This document shows, piece by piece, positions 35,674 to 55,470 of a stretch of DNA of 64,000 nucleotides. The notes under the pieces are model-generated. The model was given only the letters and a program-made list of their open reading frames with translations. It did not search any database and had not been told where the DNA came from. The translations under genes and the position numbers were made by a program. The stretch's first letter is position 1; every line of letters starts with the position of its first letter. Origin of the DNA: a virus (Duplodnaviria > Caudoviricetes); the IMG/VR virus record IMGVR_UViG_3300012016_000699, positions 37,964 to 101,963 of that record; one strand, given 5' to 3'.

Positions 35674-35729
35674 TGGCGGGGTAACAGAACATTCCAGTTG
35701 CAAATAGATAATAATCCCGGCCCCCGCCA
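35674..35729 (-). other. 3'-UTR stem-loop whose loop is antisense to the repeated leaders
   Basis: tggcgggg/ccccgcca stem enclosing aacagaaca and ttgcaaatagataataatc (plus-strand text). Confidence 0.65.
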
Positions 35730-35734
35730 GTGGT

Positions 35735-36151
35735 TTAGCCGAAGGTGTGCATCAGGCCATGCTTCTCGTCGTAGTCCCATAGGAAGTCGTGCTTGCCCTT
35801 GCAGCTGCAGGAGGAGCATTTGTACGGCGGGCACCTGTGGCAGAAGCCGTTCCTGTTGTCCCTGCACCTGGCGACGAAGCCCTTCAGGGCCTCCGAGCGC
35901 AGCCTCTGCTGCTCCTCACCCTTGATGTAGAGGTCTATCCTGCTCCTTGCCACGCGCTCCAGGGTGGCGATATCGGCATAGCCGCTGGTGTAGACCTGCT
36001 GCACGTCCCTGTCCGTACGCTTGACGTACACCGTGACGCCCTTGAACTTCCGGAAACGGAAGCAGTAGGCGTGCCCCCTGTACGATCCCTTGCGGAAGGA
36101 GCCCTGCTCGGTGAGCGGGTACTCGTTATCCTCGAACTTCTCCAGTGCCAT
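35735..36151 (-). CDS. Hypothetical protein with Cys-rich C-terminus
   Basis: ORF; C..C..C...C..C cluster. Confidence 0.6.
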   Translation of the reverse strand: MALEKFEDNEYPLTEQGSFRKGSYRGHAYCFRFRKFKGVTVYVKRTDRDVQQVYTSGYADIATLERVARSRIDLYIKGEEQQRLRSEALKGFVARCRDNRNGFCHRCPPYKCSSCSCKGKHDFLWDYDEKHGLMHTFG

Positions 36152-36575
36152 GGCCGTCCTTATGTCTCATGATGATACGATCCAGCTGAACCTTGACGCT
36201 CGTTGCAAGGTCGATGCCGTTCCTGCCCCAGGCCTGCGCCTCCTTGAACTCGCCCGTGTCCCTGTCATAGGACAGGCTGCAGAAGTTACTCTCCCTGTCG
36301 ACGACGCAGATGCGCGGGTTGCCGAAGTGGCCGTCGATCTCCACCCTTGGGATGCTCCAGTAGTAGAGCTCCTCCCTGTCCTCCTCGAAGACGGGTGCCA
36401 CGTAGCTGACGCGCACCACCTGCGGCTTGTCGGGATGGAGCCTTCTGTCGTACTCGTTGCCCCAGAAGTCGTCCGGCTTCAGCCAGCCCTCCAGGTACCA
36501 GTTCATACGGGCGTACTCCGCAGCGAAGCAGAGCATGGCCTTGTTTGCGATACTTGTATTTTCTATCTTATCCAT
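36126..36575 (-). CDS. Hypothetical protein
   Basis: ORF in early cassette. Confidence 0.65.
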   Translation of the reverse strand: MDKIENTSIANKAMLCFAAEYARMNWYLEGWLKPDDFWGNEYDRRLHPDKPQVVRVSYVAPVFEEDREELYYWSIPRVEIDGHFGNPRICVVDRESNFCSLSYDRDTGEFKEAQAWGRNGIDLATSVKVQLDRIIMRHKDGHGTGEVRG

Positions 36576-36597
36576 ATTGTTTTTTTCTTTGTTTACG

Positions 36598-36963
36598 TCA
36601 TACCGTCATTCCTATCCTTGCGATATCCAGTTTACCAGCCACTCTGTCGTAGTTCCTCTTTTCAAAGGGAACGTCCTCCGGATAGTACTTAGCGTATTTG
36701 TGCCAGCTCTCGAAACAATCCTTACACATCACCTGGTTAAGAACCGCCACATAATAGCAGGTGTCTGCAGGAAGTATTCCAGTATTGCAATTATCACAAC
36801 ACATCATGCCTCCAGGCTCTACATTGATTACGCTGAATCCGTCAAAGACCCCTCCGTTCACCACTCCGAGGTCTTGAACCTGGCCACAACCGAAGCCGAT
36901 ACTCATGAACTCTTCTCCTGTTGCCTCGATAACGAGGAACTTGCTTTCTATTTTCTTTGCCAT
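36598..36963 (-). CDS. Zn-finger-like hypothetical protein
   Basis: CCDNC ... YYVAVLNQVMCKDC. Confidence 0.7.
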   Translation of the reverse strand: MAKKIESKFLVIEATGEEFMSIGFGCGQVQDLGVVNGGVFDGFSVINVEPGGMMCCDNCNTGILPADTCYYVAVLNQVMCKDCFESWHKYAKYYPEDVPFEKRNYDRVAGKLDIARIGMTV

Positions 36964-36968
36964 AATTA

Positions 36969-37166
36969 CTATATAAAAACTCGTTTGTTATTCTTATCCA
37001 TTACCAGTACCACGCCCTTCTTGTTCTTCAGGCTGGGGCATTGTTCGTAGGCGAACTTCACTACATCAGAGAGGTCGAGCTTGAAAAGGGGATTGTATCT
37101 GTATTCAAGCTGGCAGTAGAACTTACCCCCCCCAGACAACATCACGTCGATAATCAGCTTCTTCAT
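36969..37166 (-). CDS. Hypothetical protein
   Basis: ORF with ATGA coupling. Confidence 0.6.
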   Translation of the reverse strand: MKKLIIDVMLSGGGKFYCQLEYRYNPLFKLDLSDVVKFAYEQCPSLKNKKGVVLVMDKNNKRVFI

Positions 37167-37984
37167 ACTCCGTCATTTCCTTTGAGGTATCTTTCTTTCA
37201 TCGAACTTGTGCTGATGTTATATGGAAGCACCTGCAGCAACTTAGTTCTTACCTCCGGCCAAGAACCTTCTTTCTCAATCGTCCAGCAGTTATCATTTTT
37301 ATTGAAACGGAGCAATCTGAAAGTTCCTTGTTCGTTGGTTGTCAGCCGGTAGAGGCGCTTTCCAATACCTTCGAGGGCTATGTCGTGAGGCTTGGCATCA
37401 TAGTCTTTTTCCACACGGCTGTACCAATATTCTGTGCAGATATGCCAAAGTCGCAGTTTCATCCAGAGGGAGCAGATGGCCGGAGCAATCTCGTTGAAGC
37501 CGAATGACCAGCTCTTTCGGCAAACTCGGCACTCGACAGTGATCTCCATTTCCTTCTTTTCATTGCCTATATAGGCAAGATACAGAGGGTTTGATTTGCC
37601 ATTCCAGTGGGCCCACATTCCCTCTGCAGATTTCGGCAGTGATAACCCGTGATAGCATCTGAGGTTCACCAGCAAGCCGTCTTTTTGGTCCCACAACTGG
37701 CGGTTTCCATGATGCTCCGTCAGGAATTTTACATCCTTGTCAGATAGGTATTGCTCTTTTATCTGTAAGTCCCAAGGAATGTGGTCCTTGCGGACTATCG
37801 GATATTCAAAGTCCCCTGGCTTGATACCATCCTCCTCGGGCATGGGGATGCGCCAGAGGAGGCCGTCAGTGCGGTACTCATATTCAATTTCATTCAGCTG
37901 CTCATACCTGCAAGCGAACATTTCCTCACAGGTTCCAATCTTGACTTTCTGGCCGTCAGAGATTCTTCTTGCATATTCTCCCAT
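37163..37984 (-). CDS. Hypothetical protein
   Basis: MGEYARRISDG..KIGTCE N-terminus; CxxC. Confidence 0.7.
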   Translation of the reverse strand: MGEYARRISDGQKVKIGTCEEMFACRYEQLNEIEYEYRTDGLLWRIPMPEEDGIKPGDFEYPIVRKDHIPWDLQIKEQYLSDKDVKFLTEHHGNRQLWDQKDGLLVNLRCYHGLSLPKSAEGMWAHWNGKSNPLYLAYIGNEKKEMEITVECRVCRKSWSFGFNEIAPAICSLWMKLRLWHICTEYWYSRVEKDYDAKPHDIALEGIGKRLYRLTTNEQGTFRLLRFNKNDNCWTIEKEGSWPEVRTKLLQVLPYNISTSSMKERYLKGNDGV

Positions 37985-38004
37985 AGTTGTATTGCTTTTT
38001 AGGG

Positions 38005-38424
38005 TTATTCTTCAACATCCTCCAGGTATTCATCGATTACCTCAAAGGCCCGGTCAAACGTCTTCTCATTCACTTCCTTGTATTTCTCTTGCAGAATGGA
38101 GCGGGTGTCACGTTCCTCAAAGTTGATACCCTTAAACCATTTGGAAGGAGTCGAAGGGTTCTTCAGCTGTTCCATCAGTTCCTTGGCAAAGAACTTCTTC
38201 TGCATCTTTGCACCACGGAAGAGTCCATCAATGGCATGGAACGTTTCATACATCAGATCCACGTTGTTCGGGGTGTTCTTGACAATGGCGTAGATTTCCG
38301 TCTTCTTGCCGTCAGTGGTTATCGTGTCACCCTCGGCCCAGTCGAAGTGATGTTCACGGTGTCCTATCTCCTGGCCCTCAATGAACCAGATGCAGATGTC
38401 GTTCTGATAGTCGATTGTTGTCAT
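38005..38424 (-). CDS. Hypothetical protein
   Basis: ORF. Confidence 0.65.
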   Translation of the reverse strand: MTTIDYQNDICIWFIEGQEIGHREHHFDWAEGDTITTDGKKTEIYAIVKNTPNNVDLMYETFHAIDGLFRGAKMQKKFFAKELMEQLKNPSTPSKWFKGINFEERDTRSILQEKYKEVNEKTFDRAFEVIDEYLEDVEE

Positions 38425-38442
38425 GATTGAATCCTCCTTCGG

Positions 38443-38628
38443 TTAAGAACATGTTTCATACTCCTTGGTACGCTTGGCGAGTTCCTCCTCACTCATAAGC
38501 TCCATGAGCTGGTCGTGGACGACCTTTGCAAGCTCCCGCTCAGAGGGGTCGGGACTCTGGTTGTAGTACTGGAAATCGCAAACGAGGATTTCGATCTTGT
38601 CGGGGTTGTAATTCGAGCTGTAATTCAT
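38443..38628 (-). CDS. Hypothetical protein (start revised to ATG 38628)
   Basis: First gene behind promoter copy 2. Confidence 0.65.
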   Translation of the reverse strand: MNYSSNYNPDKIEILVCDFQYYNQSPDPSERELAKVVHDQLMELMSEEELAKRTKEYETCS

Positions 38629-38752
38629 AATGTTGTTCTGTTTAAATTGTTTGATTATCATCTTATTTGCAATACAAAGATACGAAAATGTAATCAAATA
38701 TGCAAGTTTTTACGGAATTATTTTCGTTAAACAAAGTTAATCAAATTTGCAA
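38629..38752 (-). promoter_or_regulatory. Repeated promoter/leader, copy 2
   Basis: TATCTTTG at 38675-38682; leader GCAAATAAGATGATAATCAAACAATTTAAACAGAACAACATTATG. Confidence 0.9.
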
Positions 38753-38777
38753 TCCAGCAGGCCTGCGGAGGCACGCG

Positions 38778-38814
38778 AAAAGGCGGACGCATCCACGAAG
38801 GAGTGCATCCGCCT
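38778..38814 (-). terminator. Intrinsic terminator
   Basis: aggcggatgca...tgcgtccgcct-ttt on the minus strand. Confidence 0.7.
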
Positions 38815-38843
38815 GTCAACAGAACTTATATGGTGAAACTTTA

Positions 38844-39299
38844 CTACCACTTGCGGATCGGCTTGCGCCCGTCCTTGGATCCTCCCAGCTGGAAGGACTT
38901 GACGGCCCATGCGAGGCTCACGCCATCGTAGAACTGCCAGAGCTCGCCGTCACCCTCCACGGGGTTGTTCTCCCCGTCGTACTGGCCGGAGGGGCTGACA
39001 CCTATCTCGAAATGCTCGTAGCGCTGTCTGCCCGTCCTCTCGTCGTACCAGGTCTGGATGGCACCGAGGTAGAACCTCGTGGCGGTGTCGTAGAACTCCG
39101 CGATGTAGTTGGGATGGCCTCCGTCCCTGTCCGTCCAGTTGGAGAAGTCGACGGTGACCTTCGGGTTGGGTACTCTCACGGTAGCCTCGCTGGTCCTGGC
39201 CTGGCGCGCGTCGTCCTTCATCGGTACGAGGTCGAGGTCCATCAGCTGGGCTACCCTCTGGCAGAAGCCTGTAAATGTCTGGGTATTCATATCGGTCAT
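38844..39299 (-). CDS. Hypothetical protein
   Basis: ORF. Confidence 0.65.
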   Translation of the reverse strand: MTDMNTQTFTGFCQRVAQLMDLDLVPMKDDARQARTSEATVRVPNPKVTVDFSNWTDRDGGHPNYIAEFYDTATRFYLGAIQTWYDERTGRQRYEHFEIGVSPSGQYDGENNPVEGDGELWQFYDGVSLAWAVKSFQLGGSKDGRKPIRKW

Positions 39300-39302
39300 T
39301 GG

Positions 39303-39518
39303 TTAGAATTTGTCACTGTCGTCGCACTCCATCCGCCCGAGCATGAGCTTCTGGTAGATGTTCGTGTATCTCTCCCGCTCGGCTCCCTCGCAGCACATCA
39401 TTGCCTCGAAGTAGAAGGCGAGGGCCTCACGCCTCACCTTCTGCTCGGTCTTGTTGTAGCAGGTGATCGTCACGACGTCGTCGAGGCTCGCCTGCCGGTT
39501 CTTCATTACCTGTTCCAT
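39303..39518 (-). CDS. Small conserved phage protein
   Basis: VTITCY..REALAFYFEAMMCCEGAERERYTNIY. Confidence 0.7.
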   Translation of the reverse strand: MEQVMKNRQASLDDVVTITCYNKTEQKVRREALAFYFEAMMCCEGAERERYTNIYQKLMLGRMECDDSDKF

Positions 39519-39531
39519 GTCCCTGGGGTGT

Positions 39532-39906
39532 TTAGCAGCACTTCACGAAGTTGGCGCAGATGAATGAGCGGATGCCGTTGCAGTTCACGTCATAGTAAGG
39601 GAACGTTACCTCGTTGGCCTTCCAGTAGGGGTTCTCCTTGCGCATCGGATCGGTCAGCGTGGCTGTGGCCTTGCGGTAGCTGCCGTCCTTCTTGATGTAG
39701 ATGAACGATACGCTGGTCTCGGTCAGCAGGCGGCGGTAGAACTTCACTATCTCCCAGGCCTTCTTGAAAGCCTCGCTGCGGGTCATGTGGTTGTTACGCA
39801 TCATAGCCGTGGCGCGGGCGATGAAAAGACGCTTGCTGTAGAAGCTGGTCTTGGAGTTGTTCACGCGGTTCTGATTCTCGCTGTTGTTGATGTTCTGAGT
39901 GTTCAT
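39532..39906 (-). CDS. SH3-like beta-barrel (WYL_2/DUF2693-like) protein
   Basis: SEAFKKAW, VSFIYIKKDGSYRKATATL, YYDV...RSF. Confidence 0.75.
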   Translation of the reverse strand: MNTQNINNSENQNRVNNSKTSFYSKRLFIARATAMMRNNHMTRSEAFKKAWEIVKFYRRLLTETSVSFIYIKKDGSYRKATATLTDPMRKENPYWKANEVTFPYYDVNCNGIRSFICANFVKCC

Positions 39907-40028
39907 AACTGTTCTGTTTTTAAAGTTTGATTATTATCTTATTTGCAATACAAAGATACAAAAAAATAATCAAATATGCAAGCTTTTACGAAAAAACTTC
40001 CGTTAAATAGAGTTAATCAAATATGCAA
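39907..40028 (-). promoter_or_regulatory. Repeated promoter/leader, copy 3
   Basis: TATCTTTG at 39951-39958; two TTGCATATTTGATTA boxes. Confidence 0.9.
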
Positions 40029-40041
40029 TGCAGAGCAAAGG

Positions 40042-40074
40042 AAAAAAGTCGCCTGGCCTCTCGGCTGGACGACT
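40042..40074 (-). terminator. Intrinsic terminator
   Basis: agtcg..cgact hairpin followed by T6 on the minus strand. Confidence 0.65.
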
Positions 40075-40146
40075 CTCCATGTAAAAATGCGTGTGACTGC
40101 GGACCTCGCGGCAGGCGTTCACTGGTTACTTATATAACAATAACGC

Positions 40147-40581
40147 TTATTTCGGTTTCCATCTGATGGACGGTTGCTGAATGAAGTCCCTGTCCTTCTC
40201 CACTTGTCTGATAGCCTCGATGACCGTCTTGTACTTGCTGGCCTCCGGCAGCTCGATTCCTGCTTCGATGGCGGCGTAGTTCTGGAACCGGCTGATGACG
40301 GTCTGCATCTCCGTGCTTGTCAGATCGGCAGTGGAGCGGAGCCTGGTGCCCCTGATGAAGATGTCGGGACAGATGACGACCTTTATCAGCTCTTTCACCA
40401 TCTTCGGGTGGATGCCGGACTTGCTGGCGAAGTAGGTGACGAGCACCTGGAAGAAGCTGTTCTGCTCCAGCGTCCTCGGCTGCTCGTCGGTGAGCCGTAC
40501 CACACTGCCTTTCTTCAGGAACCGCTCGACATACTCACGGAACTGCTGGCGCTGTGCGTCATTCGTCAGGTCGAAGAACAT
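40147..40581 (-). CDS. NinB-like protein
   Basis: RTLEQN..., RSTADLTSTEM...IELP. Confidence 0.7.
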   Translation of the reverse strand: MFFDLTNDAQRQQFREYVERFLKKGSVVRLTDEQPRTLEQNSFFQVLVTYFASKSGIHPKMVKELIKVVICPDIFIRGTRLRSTADLTSTEMQTVISRFQNYAAIEAGIELPEASKYKTVIEAIRQVEKDRDFIQQPSIRWKPK

Positions 40582-40584
40582 GGC

Positions 40585-41806: not shown

Positions 41807-41807
41807 A

Positions 41808-46729: not shown

Positions 46730-47854
46730 TTATTTATCGTTTAACAACATTGGCATGATAAGCATGACTACCTCGATGTCCTCCTTCTGCTCTGAAGGGA
46801 CGACGAGTGCGGCACGCGTCGGATCTTTGAGCTGGATGACAACTTCGGCACATGTGTAGTTGCTGAGGATTTCCACAAAGGTGGAACCCTTGAATCCGAT
46901 GCTCATCTTCTGTCCGTCATACTCGCACTTCACGGTCTCGGTGGCCGTCTTTGAGAAGTCGTAGTCCTCGGCATCCAGCTGGATCTTGCCACCATCGAAG
47001 GTGAAGCGGATGAGATAGCTGGAGATGTTTGAGAAGTTTATGACACGTTTCAATGCTGACAGCAGTGCCATGCGCTCCACCCGTGCCTGGTTGTGGTTGC
47101 CCTCCGGAATGACGGAGTTGTAGTTGGGATAGCGGCCATCGATAAGACGGAACGTGATGACCGTTGTGTCGTAGGTCATACAGCAGTTACGATCGTCGAA
47201 GTGCATCTGCACCTCCCCTGATTCCTTGTTTGATGTGACTCGAAGCAAGGAGACAACCTTCTTCGGCATGATGAACGCGCCGATGGTCTCGCTCTTGACC
47301 TGTGTGAGTCTGTTGCGTATTAGCTTGTGACCGTCACTGGCTACGATATCCATATGCTCTGGCGTGAAGTTAAGATACTCACCGTTCATAACTGGCCGCA
47401 GCTCGTCCTGGGCAACACCGAAGAAGGCCCGGTTGATACACTCGTTGAAGATACCCTTGTCGAGAGATTTATGGACGTCGCCGGATATCGCTACAGGCTT
47501 CGGGAAGTCGAGGGCATTCTCGATGGGAAGGGAGAACTGGCCGTTGAGGTAGTTGATCTTGACGACGTTCTTCACAGTGTCGACGTCAAAGGTAAGCGGC
47601 TGCTCTGCCAGACCCTTGACGGCTTCGATGATGTCGTGCGCTCCGATGGCGAAGGCACCGTCACCGTCCGCCTCCGTCAGTTCGATACCTGTCTGCATCC
47701 ATATCTCGCTGTCCGAGGCCATGAGGTGCAGCTCGCTGGAGCTGATTTCAAACATGATGTCTCCCAGTATCGGAAGGGAGTTCTTGCTGTTGATCACTTT
47801 GCCGAGGGCGATAAGCTTTGCGCCGAGGGCAGAACTTGATGCTGTAAATTTCAT
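46730..47854 (-). CDS. dnaN: DNA polymerase III beta sliding clamp (start revised to ATG 47854)
   Basis: KNSLPIL, DELRPVMNG, VASDGHKL, LIDGRYPNYNSVIP, LIMPM. Confidence 0.95.
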   Translation of the reverse strand: MKFTASSSALGAKLIALGKVINSKNSLPILGDIMFEISSSELHLMASDSEIWMQTGIELTEADGDGAFAIGAHDIIEAVKGLAEQPLTFDVDTVKNVVKINYLNGQFSLPIENALDFPKPVAISGDVHKSLDKGIFNECINRAFFGVAQDELRPVMNGEYLNFTPEHMDIVASDGHKLIRNRLTQVKSETIGAFIMPKKVVSLLRVTSNKESGEVQMHFDDRNCCMTYDTTVITFRLIDGRYPNYNSVIPEGNHNQARVERMALLSALKRVINFSNISSYLIRFTFDGGKIQLDAEDYDFSKTATETVKCEYDGQKMSIGFKGSTFVEILSNYTCAEVVIQLKDPTRAALVVPSEQKEDIEVVMLIMPMLLNDK

Positions 47855-47894
47855 ATTCTGTATGCTTTTAGATGAATGAATAATCTTAAAATGT

Positions 47895-47924
47895 CCGTCC
47901 ACGAACCTCACGGCCGGCAGACGG
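47895..47924 (-). other. Intergenic stem-loop upstream of dnaN
   Basis: ccgtc...ccgtgagg (GNRA loop)...gacgg. Confidence 0.5.
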
Positions 47925-47938
47925 CTCCGAACAAATTG

Positions 47939-48190
47939 TTATTTATGAATTTCACTCTTGTGCCTGTTGGCGTAAATCTTCAAGGCTGTCTTGTGGTTGC
48001 GTGCCATGATAGACTCACCGTGGATAATGAACTCATGCTCCTGGCAGTCCACATGGTAGAGCTTCTTTGCCCTCGTATTGTCACGGGGCTTGACCTCTGC
48101 AGGATGACGGAGGTCGAAATGATTATTGCTGGCTGCCATCATTGCAGCTGCCATCATCATTATGGTACCTCCTCTTAGCGACTTCTTCAT
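47939..48190 (-). CDS. Hypothetical protein
   Basis: EHEFIIHGESIMARNHKTALKIY. Confidence 0.65.
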   Translation of the reverse strand: MKKSLRGGTIMMMAAAMMAASNNHFDLRHPAEVKPRDNTRAKKLYHVDCQEHEFIIHGESIMARNHKTALKIYANRHKSEIHK

Positions 48191-48882
48191 GACTGGCCTC
48201 CTTTCTTATCAATTGTTGGGGCTGAATCATCTTCTCCGCGCTCGAAATCGACAACCTGTTTGACTTTCTCTTTAAGCGCTTTATGGATATATTGGATGTT
48301 CCAAATCATCTGGTCCACGTCACCCATAGGATCATGAAAGATGAGGGTGTTTTTCGGCTTTGGTATCACCGAATATGGGTCTTCGACCTCGCCGTACAAA
48401 AGACGAACACTTTCAAGGATATAGGTGCGGGAATCACGCAATGCGTCATGCTTCCAAGGCACTGCCTTGCGTCCCAATTCCGGGAACTCCTTACGCAATG
48501 CATAGCGTAGGACGGAGCCATCGAAGTCGGTGCCTTGCATCCAGACGTGAACCTCGTCAGACTTACTTTCTTCCAGTGTTTCCAGTACCCAATTCCGGAA
48601 CATCTGCAGCGCATCTTTAATATTCTTTAGGTCGCCGTTAAGTACTGCATCCTTTGCACTATCGGAGCGTTCCGACCACCACTGACATGTTTCCGTCTCA
48701 ATATGATAGTTATTGAGAGCGCATGACGTAGCGTTGATGTTTACCTTGAACTGTTTGACGAAATAGTTATCGTCGGTTTCATCCAGAGAAAACTCCTTAG
48801 CCGCGATGGAGACAATGGCGGCAGTGGGAAGAGTCGAGAGGGTTTCTATATCCACTCCGATGTTAATGATTTTTTCCTTCAT
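48187..48882 (-). CDS. DEDD 3'-5' exo(ribo)nuclease
   Basis: VDIETL, WMQGTDFD, RDSRT, HDPMGD. Confidence 0.85.
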   Translation of the reverse strand: MKEKIINIGVDIETLSTLPTAAIVSIAAKEFSLDETDDNYFVKQFKVNINATSCALNNYHIETETCQWWSERSDSAKDAVLNGDLKNIKDALQMFRNWVLETLEESKSDEVHVWMQGTDFDGSVLRYALRKEFPELGRKAVPWKHDALRDSRTYILESVRLLYGEVEDPYSVIPKPKNTLIFHDPMGDVDQMIWNIQYIHKALKEKVKQVVDFERGEDDSAPTIDKKGGQS

Positions 48883-48884
48883 AA

Positions 48885-49184
48885 TTATAATTCATATGAT
48901 TCTTTGATAATATTTGCAAGCTTCAGCATCCTGTCCGGCCTTCCCTTGGCTCCTTCGAGAACGATACGGGCGAACAGGTCGTAGATCATGTCGAAGTCTC
49001 CCTTGCCGTTCCCTGTGCTGATAGAGGCTCCGATGGCCTTGGCCAGCCCCTCAAAGTCTCCTCCAGGAGCTTCGACCATGGCGATGGCGTTCTTTCCTTT
49101 CGGGTCGAAAACCATCTGGAGGCCGACAAATCCGGCGTTCTTGACCTCGCTGCTGAACAGGATTGACATTAATGATAAGTCCAT
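48885..49184 (-). CDS. Hypothetical protein
   Basis: ORF. Confidence 0.6.
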   Translation of the reverse strand: MDLSLMSILFSSEVKNAGFVGLQMVFDPKGKNAIAMVEAPGGDFEGLAKAIGASISTGNGKGDFDMIYDLFARIVLEGAKGRPDRMLKLANIIKESYEL

Positions 49185-49197
49185 TGTAGTAGTATCT

Positions 49198-49620
49198 TTA
49201 TTCCCAGCGTATCTTGTTCACCCACTCGCGTACGGTCTTCATAAAGTCCTCCAGTGAACGGCAGACGACATATTGGAAGCCGAGCTCCGTTACCTTCTGC
49301 TCGAAGATCTTCTGGTTCTGGTTCTGCTTTCCTGTCTGGGTCTTCATCTCCACGAAGAGGATTTTCCCTCTGTCTCCGCAGATGGTGAGGTCGGCAGCTC
49401 CAGGGAGGATTCCTTCACGGAGCATCCAAATCATTTCCTTCTTGTCTCTGGTACCACCGTTTGGGACGGCGAAGATGACATACCTCGGGTACTGGAGCTT
49501 GAACCACTTCACGCAGGAAATCTGGATATCGCTTTCCTGGTGACCCTGCACCTTCTTGTGCTTCGTGGCTTTCTCACGCATGAGAAGTTCGTCAAATGAC
49601 ACTGGCTTTCTCTGGCTCAT
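49198..49620 (-). CDS. VRR-NUC domain nuclease
   Basis: ESDIQ, FAVPNGG, GAADL, FVEMKT..GKQ..Q. Confidence 0.88.
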   Translation of the reverse strand: MSQRKPVSFDELLMREKATKHKKVQGHQESDIQISCVKWFKLQYPRYVIFAVPNGGTRDKKEMIWMLREGILPGAADLTICGDRGKILFVEMKTQTGKQNQNQKIFEQKVTELGFQYVVCRSLEDFMKTVREWVNKIRWE

Positions 49621-50222
49621 TTCTTCTCACTTTCTGATTCTGGCCAAATGAAGTCAGCCCAAATATCGAGGAACTGCTTGCCAGCATATTCGGCCAACTC
49701 TCTCTTGACAAAGCAGAGACGCGCGCCGTAGTTCGTGAGCGAGTACGGCGAAGCGTAATTCGTGTTCGAGTAAGCCACACACGCGTGCGCATACGCGTAG
49801 TTGTACGAACGGCCCAACACATGGCCTCTCTCATCCTTACTCATCTTGTCGATCTCCTCCTGTGTGAAGAGCTCAAACCAGGGATAGTAGCGATACTCAT
49901 CTACGGTGAACTGAGGCTCCCAACCTTCATTGAGGGCGGCACAGATGATTCGGAGTTTGAGGAAAGCCCAAATGTCCTTATCATCTTTCACATCAGTGTC
50001 TTTGACGGCATAGCCATAATTGTCAAAGGCTCTGCAATAGGGATGATTTTCCCCAAGCGCTTGATAAGCATCGTCAAATGTCTTGATGCGCTCGGTGATG
50101 TCCTTTTTTACAAATAGATCCTTGCCGAAGAGGTTCTCCAGCAATTCTTTCCCTTCGTCTGAAGCATTGTCGTGTGCTTTCAGAGCATCCTCTTGCGAGA
50201 TTTCAATTTTCTTGGTTTCCAT
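49617..50222 (-). CDS. Early protein with a DGR-variable-region-like segment
   Basis: ITERIKTFDDA, ALNEGWEP, YYPWF; GRSYNYAYAHACVAYSNTNYASPYSLTNYGARLCF. Confidence 0.75.
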   Translation of the reverse strand: METKKIEISQEDALKAHDNASDEGKELLENLFGKDLFVKKDITERIKTFDDAYQALGENHPYCRAFDNYGYAVKDTDVKDDKDIWAFLKLRIICAALNEGWEPQFTVDEYRYYPWFELFTQEEIDKMSKDERGHVLGRSYNYAYAHACVAYSNTNYASPYSLTNYGARLCFVKRELAEYAGKQFLDIWADFIWPESESEKK

Positions 50223-50232
50223 AAGCTAAAAG

Positions 50233-50562
50233 TTATTTCTTGAACTTTGTTATTTTTGTTGCTAAGACATTCAAAGCCTCCTTTTCGTGGAACTGGCAAT
50301 AGCGGTCGTGGATAATCTCGTCGCCTTTGTAGATGCGTATGGCCGTGAGAATCTTATGGCCGTCGAGCTTCGTTCCCTTGTTTAAGGTGTTGAAGTCGAG
50401 GGTGGCCAAGCTCTCACGAAACTGCTGTACCTCTCCCGGGTTCTTCGGCCATGAGCGCTCGACAACCTTCTTGCGCTCGAAGAAGTCAAAATATTCCCAT
50501 TCTGCCATGTATTCAGGATGCCCGACCTTGCCGAGCAACTTGATATTAGATCCGCCTTCCAT
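50233..50562 (-). CDS. Hypothetical protein
   Basis: TAATG coupling. Confidence 0.6.
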   Translation of the reverse strand: MEGGSNIKLLGKVGHPEYMAEWEYFDFFERKKVVERSWPKNPGEVQQFRESLATLDFNTLNKGTKLDGHKILTAIRIYKGDEIIHDRYCQFHEKEALNVLATKITKFKK

Positions 50563-50795
50563 TATTTGTCCTCCTCATATTTGACGGCACGATAGATTGC
50601 GTAGAACATACCGGCGAACATGACATTGTGCCATGTGCCAGACCATACTCCTGCTACCAGGGCTGTGATGCCGAGGACGATGCAGATAACTTTGACGATG
50701 ACGTCACCGGGACTGCCGGTGAATACGCCTTTTGTCGAAGACTTAGGCTGTGCTTCAGTGCTCTGTGAGAGCGTTTGTTTGCTTGATTTTTCCAT
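50562..50795 (-). CDS. Small membrane protein (start revised to ATG 50795)
   Basis: Hydrophobic VICIVLGITALVAGVW; first gene behind promoter copy 4. Confidence 0.65.
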   Translation of the reverse strand: MEKSSKQTLSQSTEAQPKSSTKGVFTGSPGDVIVKVICIVLGITALVAGVWSGTWHNVMFAGMFYAIYRAVKYEEDK

Positions 50796-50927
50796 TTGTT
50801 CGGACTTTTTTAGAGTGATTATCATCTTATTTGCAATACAAAGATACAAAGAAATTATCAAATATGCAAGAAATTACGATATTATTTTATAATCCAATAC
50901 GTTAAAATGAGTTAATCATATTTACAA
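50796..50927 (-). promoter_or_regulatory. Repeated promoter/leader, copy 4
   Basis: TATCTTTG at 50839-50846; leader ends TCCGAACAAATG. Confidence 0.88.
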
Positions 50928-50933
50928 GCGGGT

Positions 50934-50973
50934 AAAAAGAAGGACTGCACGGCCCTTCACGGGAGGTGCAGCC
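50934..50973 (-). terminator. Terminator of the PRTRC operon
   Basis: ggctgcac..gtgcagtcc hairpin then ttcttttt on the minus strand. Confidence 0.7.
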
Positions 50974-51010
50974 ACAGCAGAAAAGTCCACTTCAACAAAG
51001 AAGTAAACCG

Positions 51011-51820
51011 TTACTTTCTTTCGGTAATCTTGATTGGATTCATCTGCATGGTTGTAAGGTTGAGGAACGCTCCCTGCACATCGAGATAACCGATGGAGAA
51101 CATCTTCCAGAGGATGGCCATGCCGGCATTGGCAATGGTCGAGTTGATAAACAGATCCTGTTTGGAGAGCGCCTCGGCCAGCGAGCAGCTGGGGCCTTGG
51201 TCTTTCTCCTTGACAGCCTTGAGGTCGAACAGCTCAGTCACATCTGGCAGCTTGGCCACACAGTCCTTGCGACCCTTCGGCTGGCCTATGCTGCGCTTTG
51301 GCGTGGTACCGAGCACTACCTGTCCCCTGTCGGCGAGGTTTCCCAAGTCGAGCCAGTAGTAAGTAGTCTGCTCGTCGAGTGAGTTTGAGGGGTGCTCGAG
51401 GCTGTCGCGTATCTCAAGCCTTGCAGCCACCGTGTCGACGCAAGATATCGTGATGTTGGCCAGCTGGCTTCCCTCCTTGTAGTACTCGCCGATGCTCTCC
51501 CACTTCGTGCCGAAGAAGAAGTTGAGCTTGGTGATGAGTGCCTCGGCCTTGTTCAGACCTATCTCCTGCTCGGAGAAGAGCTGGCGGCCGCAGTTGGCCA
51601 CTGTCACGATGTCCGCATCGAAGGCCGTTACGTGGAGGCCTGGATGTCCCAGCTTCTTCAGCGCATAGCTCATACGCCCGAGGGCAGTCAGGACCTGCGA
51701 TCCCGTTCCTCCGCAGCCGATGACGTTGACGGTCAGCTGATGGTACGGGTCAAGTATGTAGTTATGGACGTAGTGCCTCATGAAGCGCGGTGCGTCCTTT
51801 GTATCTTTCTTTTTCATCAT
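51011..51820 (-). CDS. PRTRC system ThiF/E1-like protein (start revised to ATG 51820)
   Basis: IGCGGTGS, ANCGRQLF, SCVD, WLDLGN, GQVVLG, PSCSLAEALSKQDLFIN; ATGA overlap. Confidence 0.92.
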   Translation of the reverse strand: MMKKKDTKDAPRFMRHYVHNYILDPYHQLTVNVIGCGGTGSQVLTALGRMSYALKKLGHPGLHVTAFDADIVTVANCGRQLFSEQEIGLNKAEALITKLNFFFGTKWESIGEYYKEGSQLANITISCVDTVAARLEIRDSLEHPSNSLDEQTTYYWLDLGNLADRGQVVLGTTPKRSIGQPKGRKDCVAKLPDVTELFDLKAVKEKDQGPSCSLAEALSKQDLFINSTIANAGMAILWKMFSIGYLDVQGAFLNLTTMQMNPIKITERK

Positions 51821-52539
51821 ATCGGGCTTTTCAGTAAACTGGAGAGTGTCGTCTTGCTGCGTTTCAGCACCTCGGTGGGGAACGGACACCCTTCCTTGAT
51901 ACATTTCTTGGTGATGACGGCGAGGTTGCAGTTGACGGGATTGTCGCCGTAGATGTGAGAGAACTCCGACTTCCAGAACATCTCCTCCCAGTAGGCGATC
52001 CACGCCTCGTAGGTGTCCTGTCTCGGTTTGCGTATCTTCGCCGAGCCGAGGCATACGGAGCCTTTGTTGACATTGAAGAACGGGGCCTCATAGAGGATGT
52101 TCCTCGGCTTGTGCCCCTTGAAGGCGAAGACATGCAGTGCGCCGCCGGAGGCGAAGTACACCATTCCTGGTACCCACATTTCCCCGTCTGGGATGCCTGC
52201 ATTCTTCGTGAAGTACAGTTTGCGCTTCTCTGGCGGTCGGTACCATACGAGGCGCTTGTTCGTGAGGTCGCTGGAGGCATAGAGCAGGTTCTTCGGGATG
52301 ATGCCGTGCAGGGCTGTCCTGCCTGCATCCTCCTTGGCGTACTTGCTGACGGTGGCCACCAGCTTGGAGAAGTCCTCGACGGTCAGCGGGTGCGCCGCCT
52401 CCATTTTCCCGTTTCGTATCTTACGGTGCTCCACATAGCATCCGTCGCCGTGGAGCTCGACGTCCGGCTTGTAGAATATCAGGGCGTCGGTGGGCTTGAT
52501 GTTAGCCCTCATTAGGTCTCTCAGTGTTGTCATACTCAT
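51817..52539 (-). CDS. PRTRC system protein B (prokaryotic E2 family D)
   Basis: HGIIPKNLLY, LVWY, APFFNV..GSVCLG, WEEMFWKSEFSH. Confidence 0.88.
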   Translation of the reverse strand: MSMTTLRDLMRANIKPTDALIFYKPDVELHGDGCYVEHRKIRNGKMEAAHPLTVEDFSKLVATVSKYAKEDAGRTALHGIIPKNLLYASSDLTNKRLVWYRPPEKRKLYFTKNAGIPDGEMWVPGMVYFASGGALHVFAFKGHKPRNILYEAPFFNVNKGSVCLGSAKIRKPRQDTYEAWIAYWEEMFWKSEFSHIYGDNPVNCNLAVITKKCIKEGCPFPTEVLKRSKTTLSSLLKSPI

Positions 52540-53719
52540 TAGTGTCAAACTTTTCTGCTGTCTGATAGAAATCCCTCAGCCAGTCACGGAACTTCGGTAC
52601 GTAACCGATACATGACTCGAAGTACTCCTGGCGGTCATGGAAATTCTTGTCACGTGTGATTGTCATCATGCTGCACCAGCCGAGCATCTCGTCGCAGCCG
52701 TTGTTGACTGCATCGAGGACGGACTCCCCGAAGGTGTCGTACTCGCTGTAGAAGATGAAGTTGAGCAGGCTCGTGGCCGTATAGTAGTTGTCGTCATCGT
52801 CGCTGACGCCGTCACTCTCCGGGTTCCACGTCCAGTCGTAGATGTTTATGTGATAGGCGATGTCAATTCCCTCATAGAGGACTTTCATCAGCTGCCACAC
52901 GTCGGACTTCTCCGGTACATCCCTGTACTTCTCGATGTAGTGGAGAAGATCGCTGGCCAGCACTTCGCCGTCGACCTGCAGGCTGTCTATCTCGTCGAAC
53001 AGCTGCTTGTACCTGCCTGTCCTGTAGTCCGTGATGACCTGCTTTCTGAAGAGAGCGTCCTTCTTCTCGTCCTCGTCGAGCTCGTCGAAGTTGGCATAAT
53101 CCCCGTACTCGTCGAAGAAATAGTCGGCCTGCGCCTCCAGGAAGAAGCTGTCGCCGTTCAGTCCGAGGCCGATGTTCGTCTGGCTGGAGAAGAACGACAT
53201 GAACCGCTTGAAGAGCATCGACTCCGTTTCTGGCAGTGTATCTGCAGGCCTCACGTACAGCTCGCCGATGGTGTAGTCCATGGCATCGCTGCAGGCATAG
53301 ACGGCGCAGTCCAGGATAGGCTCGTACTCGTCCTTGTGGAGCATGCAGCCGAAACCCATCGGGTCCAGCAGTGCCTCGAAGTTCTCCATGAGGTATTCGA
53401 GGCGCTTCACGCTGTCCTCACTCCTCTTGGGCCTGTAGGTTATCTTGAGGTCATGGGGAGCCAGGAAGCGGTTCATGGCCTTGCGGATCACCTTGTAGCT
53501 GCCTGCGAAGTCGATGTCATACTTGTCGAGGTGGCCGGATATGGGGATATCCTTCAGACCCTCGTTCAGAAAAGCAAAGGCGTGGCCTCCCTTGGAAGAA
53601 GGACGGGGTGATTGTTTTCTTCGCCCTCGTCCTCCATCCTGCGCAGGAAGTCCTTCCCTATCTCGCCGACGGCTCTGCACAGCGAGCAGTGGAAGTCGTT
53701 TAGTTGCTGCGGTTCGCAT
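52502..53719 (-). CDS. PRTRC protein F-like acidic helical protein
   Basis: Position between C and B; basic N-terminal extension; assigned mainly by synteny. Confidence 0.55.
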   Translation of the reverse strand: MRTAATKRLPLLAVQSRRRDREGLPAQDGGRGRRKQSPRPSSKGGHAFAFLNEGLKDIPISGHLDKYDIDFAGSYKVIRKAMNRFLAPHDLKITYRPKRSEDSVKRLEYLMENFEALLDPMGFGCMLHKDEYEPILDCAVYACSDAMDYTIGELYVRPADTLPETESMLFKRFMSFFSSQTNIGLGLNGDSFFLEAQADYFFDEYGDYANFDELDEDEKKDALFRKQVITDYRTGRYKQLFDEIDSLQVDGEVLASDLLHYIEKYRDVPEKSDVWQLMKVLYEGIDIAYHINIYDWTWNPESDGVSDDDDNYYTATSLLNFIFYSEYDTFGESVLDAVNNGCDEMLGWCSMMTITRDKNFHDRQEYFESCIGYVPKFRDWLRDFYQTAEKFDTNEYDNTERPNEG

Positions 53720-53726
53720 TTCTTCT

Positions 53727-53939
53727 TCATCCCTTTGTTCCTACTGTCGTCTTGAACTCATAGACGGCCTTGTCGCCCTCGATCTTCGGACCGTGGACGT
53801 TGCTGGTCGTCAGTTCCGGATAGGTGCCTGCATAGAACTGCATCACCTCGTCAGGGGACATGGACTTGTCTGGATCCTTGAGTGTCTTGGAGCCGTGCTT
53901 GAACACGCGCTGCAGACCTGTAACGTTTAGTGCTGCCAT
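53727..53939 (-). CDS. PRTRC system protein C (prokaryotic ubiquitin-like)
   Basis: RVFK..LKDPD..MSPDEV..FYAGTYPELT..GP..YEF..VGTKG ending in Gly. Confidence 0.92.
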   Translation of the reverse strand: MAALNVTGLQRVFKHGSKTLKDPDKSMSPDEVMQFYAGTYPELTTSNVHGPKIEGDKAVYEFKTTVGTKG

Positions 53940-53941
53940 AG

Positions 53942-54550
53942 TTATTCCTCCTCACCGTTTGAATCGTCTTCCTGTTCATCCTCGCTCTTCTCGGCAGGTG
54001 CCTTGCCCTTGCCTGGACTCAGCTTCTTGCCGTCGCTCTTGTCCTCGGTGCCTCCGAAGATGCCGCCTGCGCCGCTCTTCTCGTCAACCTCCTTCTTGAG
54101 CTTCTCACATGCGCCTTTGTCGGCACCAGGCAGGGCCTCCGCCTTGGCGATGACCGTGCGGGCATCCTTGAACTTGTTCTCATTGAGCAGTTCCTTGGCC
54201 AGTGCCAGGTGGTCGATGAACACCTGCTTCTGGTCGGATTCCTCCTTCTTCTTCTTGGTCTCCATCTCCGTCTTCTTGCGTGTCTCCTCGAGACTCTTCT
54301 CGAAAGCTCCCACCTCCTCCAGGAGGGTGAAGGCCTTCTCGACGGGAGCGAGGGCCTGCTCAAACTGCTCATCGAACTCCTGCGGGGTTCCGTTCATCAC
54401 TAACGGCTCCAGGGAGGAGACCGCCTTGTCCTTGACTCCAGACGTGTCGGGAATCATACTAAGAACGAGCTTTTCGCCGTTCTTACGGATGGTCATGTTC
54501 AGCTGCTGACCGTCCTGCATCTTCGATGCGATTAAATTAAAAAATTCCAT
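53942..54550 (-). CDS. PRTRC system protein E
   Basis: MEFFNLI..LVLSMIP..PLVMNGTPQEFDEQF. Confidence 0.88.
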   Translation of the reverse strand: MEFFNLIASKMQDGQQLNMTIRKNGEKLVLSMIPDTSGVKDKAVSSLEPLVMNGTPQEFDEQFEQALAPVEKAFTLLEEVGAFEKSLEETRKKTEMETKKKKEESDQKQVFIDHLALAKELLNENKFKDARTVIAKAEALPGADKGACEKLKKEVDEKSGAGGIFGGTEDKSDGKKLSPGKGKAPAEKSEDEQEDDSNGEEE

Positions 54551-54575
54551 AATAAATAATTATTTAAAAGGGTTA

Positions 54576-54995
54576 TTAACCTTGGTTCTTCTCAGGATTG
54601 TAGTTGATAATCATGGCTAGCTCGGTTCTGAACTTTTTCTCACCTTTGCTGAACCAGTTGATGCGGTTGACGGGAATTTCCTCCAGCCCCTTGACTTTCC
54701 AGCCACGCTTCTGAAACTCGCCCAGCATATCCATGAGGGCTGTACTCTTGTTGGTGACGGCAAACTCGGTGAAGCCGAACTTTCTGAAAGCATCGAGTGT
54801 CGGATCAATTTCATCGTCCCGCAGGTGACAGGCGATAGTCAGGTAGTCGCTTCCGCACTCCTTGGCATTCCGGTAAGCATCTGCTACAAGACCGACATAC
54901 TCGGGGTTTCCATACTCTGCCAGATACTCGTCGAGGTCTATGTCGTTTCTTTCAGCACTGGCGATAATGTCTTCGATTAACTTTACTTCTTTCAT
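54576..54995 (-). CDS. Hypothetical phage protein heading the PRTRC operon (start revised to ATG 54995)
   Basis: FRKFGFTEFAVTNKST..GWKVKGL. Confidence 0.7.
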   Translation of the reverse strand: MKEVKLIEDIIASAERNDIDLDEYLAEYGNPEYVGLVADAYRNAKECGSDYLTIACHLRDDEIDPTLDAFRKFGFTEFAVTNKSTALMDMLGEFQKRGWKVKGLEEIPVNRINWFSKGEKKFRTELAMIINYNPEKNQG

Positions 54996-55034
54996 GACTT
55001 TCCTGCTTTTGATTGTTATTACTGGTGTCCTTTG

Positions 55035-55065
55035 AAAGTCCCCGCCCCCGAAGGGGCTGAGGGAC
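55035..55065 (-). terminator. Hairpin/weak terminator
   Basis: gtccc..gcccc-ttcg-ggggc..gggac then ttt (UUCG loop). Confidence 0.6.
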
Positions 55066-55076
55066 AACAGAACAAT

Positions 55077-55337
55077 TTAGCTTGCAATTTGTTTGCGTAG
55101 GGATTTGAGAATACCCTCGACAGTCTCTATATCAACATTAATACCGAAAAACAAGTCGCATGGGTATTCAAGATATACATCGCCACTCTCGACATTGAAA
55201 GAGACAACTTCTTCTTTTCCTCCGTTGAGAGCTACCGGCTCTGTGAGGTCTACAACTCCAAACTCGTTGGCGAGGTTGTTTTCTTTGACCAGCTTCTCGA
55301 TTTCATTCACGAGGTTTTGATAATTCTGAGTGTTCAT
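55077..55337 (-). CDS. Hypothetical protein (start revised to ATG 55337)
   Basis: First gene behind promoter copy 5; starts MNTQN like 39532..39906. Confidence 0.65.
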   Translation of the reverse strand: MNTQNYQNLVNEIEKLVKENNLANEFGVVDLTEPVALNGGKEEVVSFNVESGDVYLEYPCDLFFGINVDIETVEGILKSLRKQIAS

Positions 55338-55470
55338 AATGTTGTTCTGTTTAAATTGTTTGATTATTATCTTATTTGCACTACAAAGATACAAATAAAT
55401 AATCAAATATGCAAGTTTTTACGGGTTTAATTTTATCTTATCTGCTAAAAATAGTTAATCAAATATACAA
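55338..55470 (-). promoter_or_regulatory. Repeated promoter/leader, copy 5
   Basis: TATCTTTG at 55384-55391; leader nearly identical to copy 2. Confidence 0.9.

Follow-up and report, generated by a model that had tools for sequence, protein, structure and literature searches.

Early cassettes of a Bacteroidota phage carry co-varying complements of their own first start sites beside their 3' hairpins

INTRODUCTION

Kilobase-range or end-to-end RNA pairing masks a start site until translation or 3' processing frees it in the Min Jou interaction between the coat and replicase genes of MS2 and in the fold-back (fbi) of hok; both are single instances, one in the genome of an RNA phage and one in a toxin mRNA of a plasmid, in hosts that use Shine-Dalgarno sequences. 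In T4-type phages, the direct repeats of PeSL modules are thought to promote DNA shuffling, and to our knowledge the description of these modules includes no leader-to-3' complementarity. Pairing between the 5'-UTR and the 3'-UTR of the icaR mRNA of Staphylococcus aureus was shown to prevent initiation and to change decay (PMC3868564), and the same effect was proposed for the 5'/3'-UTR interaction of the hbs mRNA of Bacillus subtilis (PMC5737220). The FopS/GibS sRNAs of Bacteroides thetaiotaomicron constitute family RF04319 (PMC11697453, PMC7366714). Here we describe early cassettes of a phage of Bacteroidota in which, as in icaR and hbs, a 3' motif complements the start or ribosome-binding region of its own mRNA.

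RESULTS

Early cassettes share one plan and carry private pairs

The genes analysed lie on the minus strand, and all pairs are given as mRNA-strand sequences. We call X the 9-14 nt abutting or overlapping the first start codon of a cassette, and X' the complement of X at the cassette 3' end. Cassettes U5, PRTRC (PR), U4, U3 and U2 were examined in the window (the whole 64,000-nt stretch analysed), together with c3, c2 and c4, the last of which lies outside it. The early transcription unit is ordered as promoter, conserved leader, X, ATG, genes, stop, X' and stable hairpin, with the transcription start putatively placed by the promoter consensus. The promoter-plus-leader repeat belongs to direct-repeat family D1/D2, with 10 copies in the whole record, including:

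55338-55466, minus strand: promoter-plus-leader repeat copy 5 (CTTG-N20-TATCTTTG, then leader GCAAATAAGATAATAATCA...), from direct repeats
50796-50921, minus strand: promoter-plus-leader repeat copy 4, from direct repeats

The elements of the U5 and PR units are as follows.

55342-55351, minus strand: X(U5), AACAGAACAA, at -14 to -5 from ATG 55337 (complementarity and MFE)
55077-55337, minus strand: U5 gene, 86 aa, no family
55066-55075, minus strand: X'(U5), TTGTTCTGTT, 1 nt past the stop codon and 0 nt ahead of the hairpin (complementarity)
55038-55065, minus strand: U5 3' hairpin with a UUCG loop and no U-tract; the PRTRC leader is next, with no promoter between
54996-55007, minus strand: X(PR), AGCAGGAAAGTC, directly against ATG 54995 (complementarity)
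51011-54995, minus strand: PRTRC operon encoding DUF7698, PRTRC_E, Prok_Ub, a 405-aa protein, Prok-E2_D and ThiF (Pfam hits)
50976-50987, minus strand: X'(PR), GACTTTTCTGCT, 2 nt ahead of the terminator hairpin (complementarity)
50934-50973, minus strand: PR terminator hairpin with a GNRA loop and U-tract (hairpin variants G:U-type only)

The U5 leader matches its 3' element at 10/10 positions, and the PR pair has 12 bp with one G:U; X'(PR) can also adopt a weak local hairpin. The U4, U3 and U2 units contain:

50794-50804, minus strand: X(U4), TCCGAACAAAT, its last two bases being the AT of ATG 50795 (complementarity)
47939-50795, minus strand: U4 cassette of seven genes, including a VRR-NUC-like nuclease and an exonuclease (Pfam families of homologues)
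47926-47936, minus strand: X'(U4), ATTTGTTCGGA, 2 nt past the stop codon and 1 nt ahead of the hairpin (complementarity)
47895-47924, minus strand: U4 3' hairpin with a GNRA loop and weak U-tract; no promoter ahead of the next gene (dnaN)
39905-39918, minus strand: X(U3), AACAGAAC-AG-TTAT, overlapping ATG 39906 (complementarity)
38818-38829, minus strand: X'(U3), ATAAGTTCTGTT, 2 nt ahead of hairpin 38782-38815 (complementarity, p = 0.0015)
38634-38642, minus strand: X(U2), AACAGAACA; ATG set at 38628 by homology with U5 (complementarity)
35674-35729, minus strand: U2 3' stem-loop whose loop includes TGTTCTGTT (35683-35691), with the terminator hairpin then at 35643-35672

All 11 positions pair in U4 (11/11), and X'(U4) is the sole 11-mer complement of the U4 leader in the 102-kb record. 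The U3 pair (39905-39918 with 38818-38829) consists of 8 bp, a 2-nt bulge and 4 bp, the U2 pair (38634-38642 with 35683-35691) of 9 bp, and that of c4, outside the window, of 12/12 pairs plus a second helix of 9 bp. The U2 loop at 35698-35716 additionally complements the 5' end of the shared leader over 19 nt, a match that includes one bulge and one G:U.

The complementarity of X and X' is real. An earlier note on this DNA had proposed pairs in U4, PRTRC, U5, U3 and U2, and all five are present at the coordinates it gave, those of U3 and U2 being weaker. Its broader statement, that early cassettes carry a complement of their own leader, holds for U5, PR, U4, U3, U2 and c4 but not for the cassette at record ATG 8891, where no complement was found, or for c3, where no X' was detected; the c2 and U3 pairs are weak, that of c2 being non-significant when taken alone. 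In the six cassettes with the pair, X falls between -1 and -14 relative to the first ATG, a gap of 0-2 nt separates X' from the hairpin that follows it, and the X-X' spans cover 0.26-6.4 kb of polycistronic RNA. The pairing is private, at least six cassettes of one phage each having a separate sequence. Because leader motif ACAGAACA is common to U5, U3, U2 and c4, these four form one class rather than independent cases, giving three independent leader classes (ACAGAACA, U4 and PR). Since X' complements the leader of its own cassette and not that of the next (PR/U4, c4/c3), it belongs to the cassette flank and not to an intergenic module.

With 4,000 random 22-nt windows drawn from the same strand as background, the chance p was 0.0003 for U5 and for U4, <0.0003 for PR with G:U, 0.0015 for U3 and 0.0005 for U2, and per-pair values against random genome windows ranged from about 0.0003 to 0.005. 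By duplex energy, the cognate sites of c4 and PR top ~12,700 genome-wide windows.

X' adjoins a stable hairpin

A hairpin follows X' in all units. These hairpins are GC-rich with a GNRA or UUCG loop, and U-tracts occur only after PR, U3, U2 and c4. The X:X' helix on its hairpin might be read as a processing or stability signal, for example an RNase III-type site that cuts the polycistronic RNA into cassette-sized pieces, as do the stems flanking rRNAs and the intercistronic sites of T7. The U5 hairpin without a U-tract, the weak or missing one of U4 and the promoterless genes that come next suggest that these hairpins lie inside longer transcripts, and the 0-2 nt gap between helix and hairpin would give a stack of about 22-26 bp. 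However, the helices themselves have only 9-14 bp, and cleavage in X would kill translation too, so that this explanation, which we consider rather improbable, overlaps with start-site masking.

No Rfam match at E <= 1 was found across 34000-57000. The FopS/GibS model RF04319 scored below gathering (13.4 bits versus a cut-off of 56) on the plus strand at 35555-35620, which is a different element. The X' elements gave no covariance-model match, and membership of the FopS/GibS family was rejected. By eye, no TAnnTTTG box was seen upstream of X' in the examined regions. Separately, a candidate sRNA is present on the plus strand at 35490-35620.

The two partners change together in related phages

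We compared 14 related contigs. The pairs persist across them, with at least five two-sided compensatory changes (U4, PR, U5 and c2). The U4 pair occurs in four types, TCCGAACAAAT/ATTTGTTCGGA, ACGAACAAATG/CATTTGTTCGT, GGCCAAACA/TGTTTGGTC and GAACAAATG/CATTTGTTC; the PR pair varies between ..GTC/GAC.. and ..GTT/AAC.., and the U5 pair between AACAGAACAA/TTGTTCTGTT and AACGGAACAAT/ATTGTTCCGTT, while in c2 both partners differ between the two whole genomes. Some elements are strongly conserved: ACTTTTCTGCTGTGGCTG of X'(PR) is invariant in 11 loci, and the U5 3' hairpin is conserved in nine. X' and hairpin come and go together, both being absent after U5 in L014, L019 and L034. Where the stop codon of L034 is ~60 nt off, X' still adjoins the hairpin. 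Helices are not always perfect: six relatives (L009, L011, L012, L020, L030 and L033) have an uncompensated A.C in the middle of the U5 helix, the commonest U5 state among relatives, and the PR helix contains a 1-nt bulge in L014, L019 and L030.

These comparisons bear out the earlier claim that leader and 3' element change together, between paralogous as well as orthologous cassettes. The expectation that cognate duplexes would beat non-cognate ones was also confirmed, in 20,000/20,000 permutation trials: the cognate energy sum was -367.5 versus a permuted mean of -233.9 (sd 19; 0/20,000 permutations as low), and within units across loci -356.6 versus -321.1 (sd 9; 0/20,000 as low), with p values inflated because related sequences are not independent. 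Two-sided changes and permutation tests indicate selection on the pairing, as in icaR-type self-pairing, relatedness again inflating p. A further argument, that G:U substitutions on the mRNA strand favour RNA pairing, did not survive: it rests on a single G:U in the window, and about six independent G:U versus three A.C across all loci are not decisive, making the count statistically empty as a means of singling out the mRNA strand.

Covariation is open to explanations at the DNA level. The pairs are literally inverted repeats bracketing a coding block between promoter and terminator, as those flanking an inverton segment do, and could serve in phase variation, as crossover sites at which whole cassettes flip while promoter and terminator stay in place, or could be the ends of mobile cassettes. 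Recombination cores that must match would covary too, the A.C mismatches of U5 are G:T on the other strand, and the cassettes are mosaic between relatives. Yet all 14 contigs are collinear, with identical cassette order and orientation, and invertible segments were rejected as both orientations were not found among them. The 9-14 bp with bulges are short compared with the sites of known invertases, and a single recombinase or transposase could not recognize repeats that differ from cassette to cassette. Moreover, the hairpins have RNA-type GNRA/UUCG loops with only G:U-type variants. X lies 36 to ~200 nt from the preceding hairpin (36 nt in PR, ~180 nt in U4 with the promoter between) rather than abutting it, unlike an integron attC junction, where excision restores a single palindrome, and attC cassettes were rejected on this junction. 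We consider a DNA-level function of the inverted repeats unlikely.

X and X' might also be oppositely oriented dsDNA sites for a protein that marks cassette ends by looping or as a roadblock, either a phage regulator or a small first-gene product. Most leaders share ACAGAACA, those of the second whole genome have mostly switched together to ACGGAACA, as if following a trans factor, and the first genes encode small proteins without known family. However, the private variants of PR and U4 covary pairwise, which one protein cannot explain, and one protein per cassette would be unparsimonious. The PR pair barely changes while identity between PR1 alleles runs from 36% to 91%, and protein sites do not explain why X' so strictly adjoins an RNA hairpin and X a start codon, so we assign protein sites a low probability.

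Finally, X' could be a non-functional relic, an inverted partial leader copy duplicated with the terminator module and kept by linkage. The 3' elements of c4 and U2 do resemble inverted, internally deleted leader copies, and the element is missing or decayed in some cassettes. Nevertheless, few non-coding stretches are as well conserved as X' across loci whose proteins share only 58-80% identity, and two-sided compensatory changes recur in three units, making a relic very unlikely.

The closing helix dominates predicted whole-transcript folds

In silico, the closing helix is thermodynamically dominant: it was part of the MFE structure of whole-transcript folds (0.35-4.4 kb) in 10/11 cases, a long-range prediction that takes no account of ribosomes or co-transcriptional folding. 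The U5 helix was found in the MFE of 345-nt transcripts (WIN, L018, L011 and L012), the U4 helix in that of the 2,945-nt transcript and of its counterparts in L014, L009, L012 and L018, and both the U5 and PR helices (55066-55075; 50976-50987) in that of the 4,444-nt transcript. In the 2,945-nt ensemble, U4 pair probabilities were 0.71-0.98, reaching up to ~0.98, and scrambling X'(U4) in the ensemble calculation abolished the pairing and left the leader unpaired. Sequence and predicted folds thus agree on a 3'-UTR element complementary to its own start region, as in icaR.

Start sites lack Shine-Dalgarno enrichment

Shine-Dalgarno sequences were found in 15% of genes versus 17% of random windows, and A content reaches 64-67% at -13/-14 upstream of starts, within an A-rich region from -12 to -15. 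Start sites are thus A-rich upstream and without Shine-Dalgarno sequences, as claimed earlier, and both features agree with the initiation rules in PMC6847099.

DISCUSSION

Taken together, the cassette-specific covarying pairs, the predicted folds and the context without Shine-Dalgarno sequences make masking of the first start the best reading, and we consider it probable that X:X' pairing in RNA occludes this site, either in cis or by way of a fragment of the 3' UTR. We infer action at the RNA level and translational repression, with cis versus trans as the choice of route; the earlier note had offered a transcription-length timer or 3'-UTR feedback sRNAs as possible mechanisms. X and X' would pair as RNA. 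Bacteroidota ribosomes skip Shine-Dalgarno sequences and need an unstructured A-rich region upstream of the start codon, so such a duplex would prevent initiation at the first cistron; with many downstream genes abutting or overlapping the next one, output of the whole cassette would probably drop as well. In cis, a 'panhandle' would close on top of the 3' hairpin, and only after the 3' end has been transcribed. In trans, a nuclease-resistant 3' fragment would combine a single-stranded seed with a hairpin, the architecture of Bacteroides sRNAs that target start sites. Either route could produce a self-limiting shut-off particular to each cassette.

We tentatively extend this proposal to a family of large phages infecting Bacteroidota, in which every early operon may have a private 'address', a start-site sequence with a co-evolving anti-start element fused to the 3' hairpin, so that the finished mRNA folds back on itself, or releases an sRNA from its 3' UTR, and ends its own translation. 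If true, this would be a modular, sequence-programmable and self-timed early shut-off suited to a host without Shine-Dalgarno recognition, working beside generic anti-leader RNAs, namely the U2 3' loop and the plus-strand candidate at 35490-35620, against the 5' leader that the cassettes share.

Among known systems, MS2 and hok are similar in that the predicted cassette helix would also be a long-range or end-to-end pairing over a start site. PeSL modules are likewise repeated terminator-hairpin and early-promoter modules between small early cassettes, with mosaic relatives. Unlike the phage cassettes, icaR and hbs are single host genes in which a Shine-Dalgarno sequence is the target; the phage feature recurs in at least six cassettes at non-Shine-Dalgarno starts, with private covarying sequences always beside a 3' hairpin, and is known from sequence and predicted folds. 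The FopS/GibS sRNAs come from the same host phylum, have a single-stranded seed followed by a hairpin and target the region around the start codon of a polycistron's first gene, as the phage elements would. However, each FopS sRNA has a stand-alone gene and a promoter of its own, and the seed that these sRNAs share is directed at other loci, whereas the phage seed lies within the 3' UTR of the same operon that it matches.

Genomic setting and translation starts

The window spans bases 37964-101963 of a 101,963-bp IMG/VR provirus record, and its - strand carries almost all genes. Early-type functions mark the region of the paired elements: a PRTRC ubiquitin-like conjugation operon, a VRR-NUC-like nuclease and an exonuclease, and dnaN and helicase genes whose identity was judged from syntenic homologues. 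A conserved promoter-plus-leader repeat, CTTG-N20-TATCTTTG followed by GCAAATAAGATAATAATCA..., occurs four times in this region and at least 10 times in the whole record. Upstream of 94 genes, Shine-Dalgarno enrichment was absent (15% of genes versus 17% of random windows) and A reached 64-67% at -13/-14, the pattern described for Bacteroidia (PMC6847099). From this initiation pattern and the promoter consensus we infer that the host probably belongs to the Bacteroidota; a search of genome contigs returned no match.

Two further elements of the window were recorded. At 35490-35620 on the + strand, opposite to phage transcription, lies a stand-alone antisense sRNA candidate (fold z-score -3.9). 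It contains CTGTTCTG and GATATTATCTTATTTGC, which complement the two conserved parts of the leader, and behind them a terminator with a GNRA loop and then a U-tract. It is this candidate, not the paired elements, that matched RF04319, the FopS model, weakly and at full length (13.4 bits, E = 1.1, cut-off 56). At 57505-57744, direct repeats resembling TTTGGCGGAACTTTGGTGAGACTTTGGTGA (families D5 and D9) form a cluster within a 671-bp stretch without an ORF; this may be a replication origin or a set of iterons.

Early cassettes carry a complement of their own start region

All of the leader/3'-end pairs reported in the earlier note were recovered at the same positions. One partner, X, is a 9-14 nt segment at the first ATG of a cassette; the other, X', precedes the 3' hairpin of the same cassette. 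The pairs in the window (all on the - strand; U2 to U5 and PR, the PRTRC operon, are early gene cassettes) are as follows.

U4: X TCCGAACAAAT at 50794-50804; X' ATTTGTTCGGA at 47926-47936; 11/11 paired
PR: X AGCAGGAAAGTC at 54996-55007; X' GACTTTTCTGCT at 50976-50987; 12 bp including one G:U
U5: X AACAGAACAA at 55342-55351; X' TTGTTCTGTT at 55066-55075; 10/10 paired
U3: 8 bp, a 2-nt bulge and 4 bp
U2: 9 bp, plus a 19-nt loop segment that complements the leader's shared 5' end

In every pair X falls between -1 and -14 relative to the first ATG, which it sometimes includes, and X' is separated by 0-2 nt from a GC-rich hairpin on its 3' side, the loop of which is GNRA or UUCG. With 4,000 random 22-nt windows from that strand as the reference, the longest runs of the window pairs had p = 0.0003-0.0015. 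Cognate pairs were expected to outscore non-cognate ones, and did so clearly in U4 and PR, each a distinct class; U5, U3 and U2 count as one class because the leader motif ACAGAACA is common to all three.

Local pairing is also possible at two of the 3' elements. In U5, X' (GUUCU) has an alternative partner, AAAGGAC, right after the hairpin, which lengthens the local stem (window 55038-55076, downstream 55025-55037); this partner is leader-like and reads AGAGAAC or AAAGAAC in relatives, and on transcripts that read through the hairpin it would be a competitor of the long-range helix. The PR 3' element (window 50976-51005; columns 30-45 of alignment A3) can form a weak hairpin, AGUGGA-CUUU-UCUGCU in the window and GCAGA-CUUU-UCUGC in the related locus L014, whose 5' arm mimics the PR leader and could act as a decoy or switch.

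Outside the window, the c4 cassette (ATG at record position 25024) has the leader ACAGAACAGTTA and its exact 12-nt complement at 18599-18610, 6.4 kb downstream. This site lies 5 nt past the last stop codon; next come TTGATTATT, which is complementary to the leader segment AATAATCAA, and then a terminator. By duplex energy against the c4 leader, this site ranked first among ~12,700 windows genome-wide, as did the PR site for the PR leader; for U4, U5 and U2 the same ranking tests little, because their AT-rich true sites score below GC-rich coding sequence. No complement was detected for the cassette at ATG 8891 or for c3. An internal gene of the c4 cassette (whole-record position 23808) has a variant leader, GCAAATAGGAAATAATCA, that matches a small AT hairpin of the c4 3' UTR over 10-12 nt.

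The pairs are kept and change together in relatives

Homologues of the 405-aa PRTRC protein, together with contig look-ups and profile scans, led to 14 syntenic contigs (58-99% identity); among them is G001, a second complete record, which was taken whole. Among viral contigs, a scan with a single protein gave no match and a profile scan gave one record. All 14 are collinear, with no inverted cassette among them. Covariation across related phages, proposed in the earlier note as a check, was borne out: the pairs are kept, and the partners change together (see table). Because a MAFFT alignment of U5 transcripts mis-registers the leaders of the window, L017 and L033, where X lies 3 nt farther from the ATG, duplexes were listed locus by locus instead of being counted as structure pairs from that alignment.

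Table. Variants of the X/X' pairs (L numbers denote loci on related contigs)
U4 type 1: TCCGAACAAAT/ATTTGTTCGGA; window, L017; 1 bp shorter at the outer end in L011, L030, L033
U4 type 2: ACGAACAAATG/CATTTGTTCGT; L014, L019
U4 type 3: GGCCAAACA/TGTTTGGTC; L009; one G:U
U4 type 4: GAACAAATG/CATTTGTTC; L012, L018, L034
U4 weak extra type: AATCAA/TTGATT; L020
PR terminal C:G: U:A in L009; U:G in L020; broken in L018
PR helix with a 1-nt bulge: L014, L019, L030
U5: AACAGAACAA/TTGTTCTGTT in the window; AACGGAACAAT/ATTGTTCCGTT in L018, 11/11

In six other loci, U5 combines the old X with the new X', leaving a central A.C mismatch. Both partners of c2, a pair that is not significant taken alone, differ between the two genomes, and each fits its own. 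When 28 distinct pairs were permuted, the cognate energy sum was -367.5 versus -233.9 (sd 19.2), and within units across loci it was -356.6 versus -321.1 (sd 9.1), with 0/20,000 permutations as low in either case; relatedness inflates these figures, and the explicit two-sided changes are therefore the real evidence. X' is among the best-conserved non-coding stretches and is gained or lost jointly with its hairpin, both being missing after U5 in L014, L019 and L034. Coupling of X' to the footprint of a terminating ribosome was rejected as a general rule, since the stop-to-X' distance runs from 0 to ~60 nt and the gap between X' and the hairpin stays constant. A 9-mer resembling X' at G001 31983 was dropped, as it sits within a coding region.

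The relatives also differ in other respects. Most of nine G001 leaders (L024-L028) read ACGGAACA where the record around the window has ACAGAACA, a genome-wide, concerted switch suggestive of gene conversion between copies of the leader or of co-evolution with a partner that acts in trans. The PRTRC-U4 region is strongly mosaic (L009-L035 versus window 47800-56100): L019 shares 99% identity with the window in the 405-aa protein, 95% in ThiF, 70% in the first U4 protein and only 36% in DUF7698, so breakpoints are not limited to cassette borders. The dnaN homologue is split into two called ORFs in L030 (12858-13912, 155/178 aa) and L032 (8028-9156, 178/178 aa), which could reflect a frameshift, an insertion or an assembly error.

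Probable action as RNA rather than DNA

The repeats could instead serve a recombinase, transposase or DNA-binding protein. A single such protein is argued against by the repeat differing from cassette to cassette, and no inverted arrangement was seen in the related contigs. X' fits the leader of its own cassette and not that of the next one downstream (c4 versus c3; PR versus U4), and the repeats thus bracket the transcript body, not a terminator-promoter module. An inverton of the latter kind was considered since GGACTTTT and AAAAGTCC bracket promoter 4, and was rejected because L009, L012 and L014 have lost this 8-mer pair, whereas the cassette-flanking pairs are kept. The arrangement failed integron junction geometry, and no inverton behaviour was seen. 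Both elements always fall within the inferred transcript, X on the start site and X' against an RNA-type hairpin. Judged from sequence, this placement, the private repeat of each cassette and the absence of inverted arrangements favour action as RNA. The substitutions themselves are no guide: about six independent G:U changes (mRNA sense) stand against three A.C, which is not significant, whereas a bona fide terminator hairpin, unlike the X:X' helices, has G:U-type variants only.

Minimum-energy folding of whole inferred transcripts, which ignores ribosomes and kinetics, gave a consistent result for the predicted X:X' helix. It appeared in the 345-nt U5 RNA of the window, L018, L011 and L012, and was absent in L009; in the 2,945-nt U4 RNA; and, for U5 and PR together, in the 4,444-nt promoter-5 transcript. 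The U4 RNAs of L014, L009, L012 and L018 (2.0-3.4 kb) each formed it with their own sequence. Ensemble pair probabilities for U4 were 0.71-0.98, and scrambling X' left X unpaired.

Proposed mechanism and relation to known systems

We consider it somewhat probable that X and X' pair at the RNA level. The earlier interpretation of RNA pairing at the start site is partly supported, by position, covariation and folds; its G:U wobble argument fails. The duplex would cover the region in which translation of the first cistron starts. If the host does not recognise Shine-Dalgarno sites, such masking should block initiation (PMC6847099) and should lower expression of the tightly packed downstream genes too. 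Once the 3' end has been made, pairing could occur in cis; alternatively, a stable 3' fragment could act in trans. A related alternative is that the stacked helix serves as an RNase III-type processing signal, which is especially relevant for U5 and U4, whose hairpins are without U-tracts and lie inside longer transcripts.

If translational masking by X:X' pairing is true, this would be the first DNA phage to use 5'-3' mRNA self-complementarity systematically, operon by operon, and would give a concrete view of expression timing in bacteria that ignore Shine-Dalgarno sites, with start-site accessibility as the main control. The natural covariation set (four U4, two PR and two U5 types) supplies ready compensatory mutants for reporters, and for engineering Bacteroides or Prevotella the short, portable X ... 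X'-hairpin design could become an off-switch of translation that can be tuned.

The feature belongs to no Rfam family in an Rfam search. Its proposed action resembles the interaction between 5' and 3' UTRs in icaR (PMC3868564) and hbs (PMC5737220), as well as FopS/GibS. An X'-hairpin 3' fragment would have the seed-plus-terminator architecture of the FopS sRNAs, which act at the start codon to repress the leading gene of polycistrons in Bacteroides (PMC11697453). The new point is that the X/X' pairing is private to each cassette and covaries.
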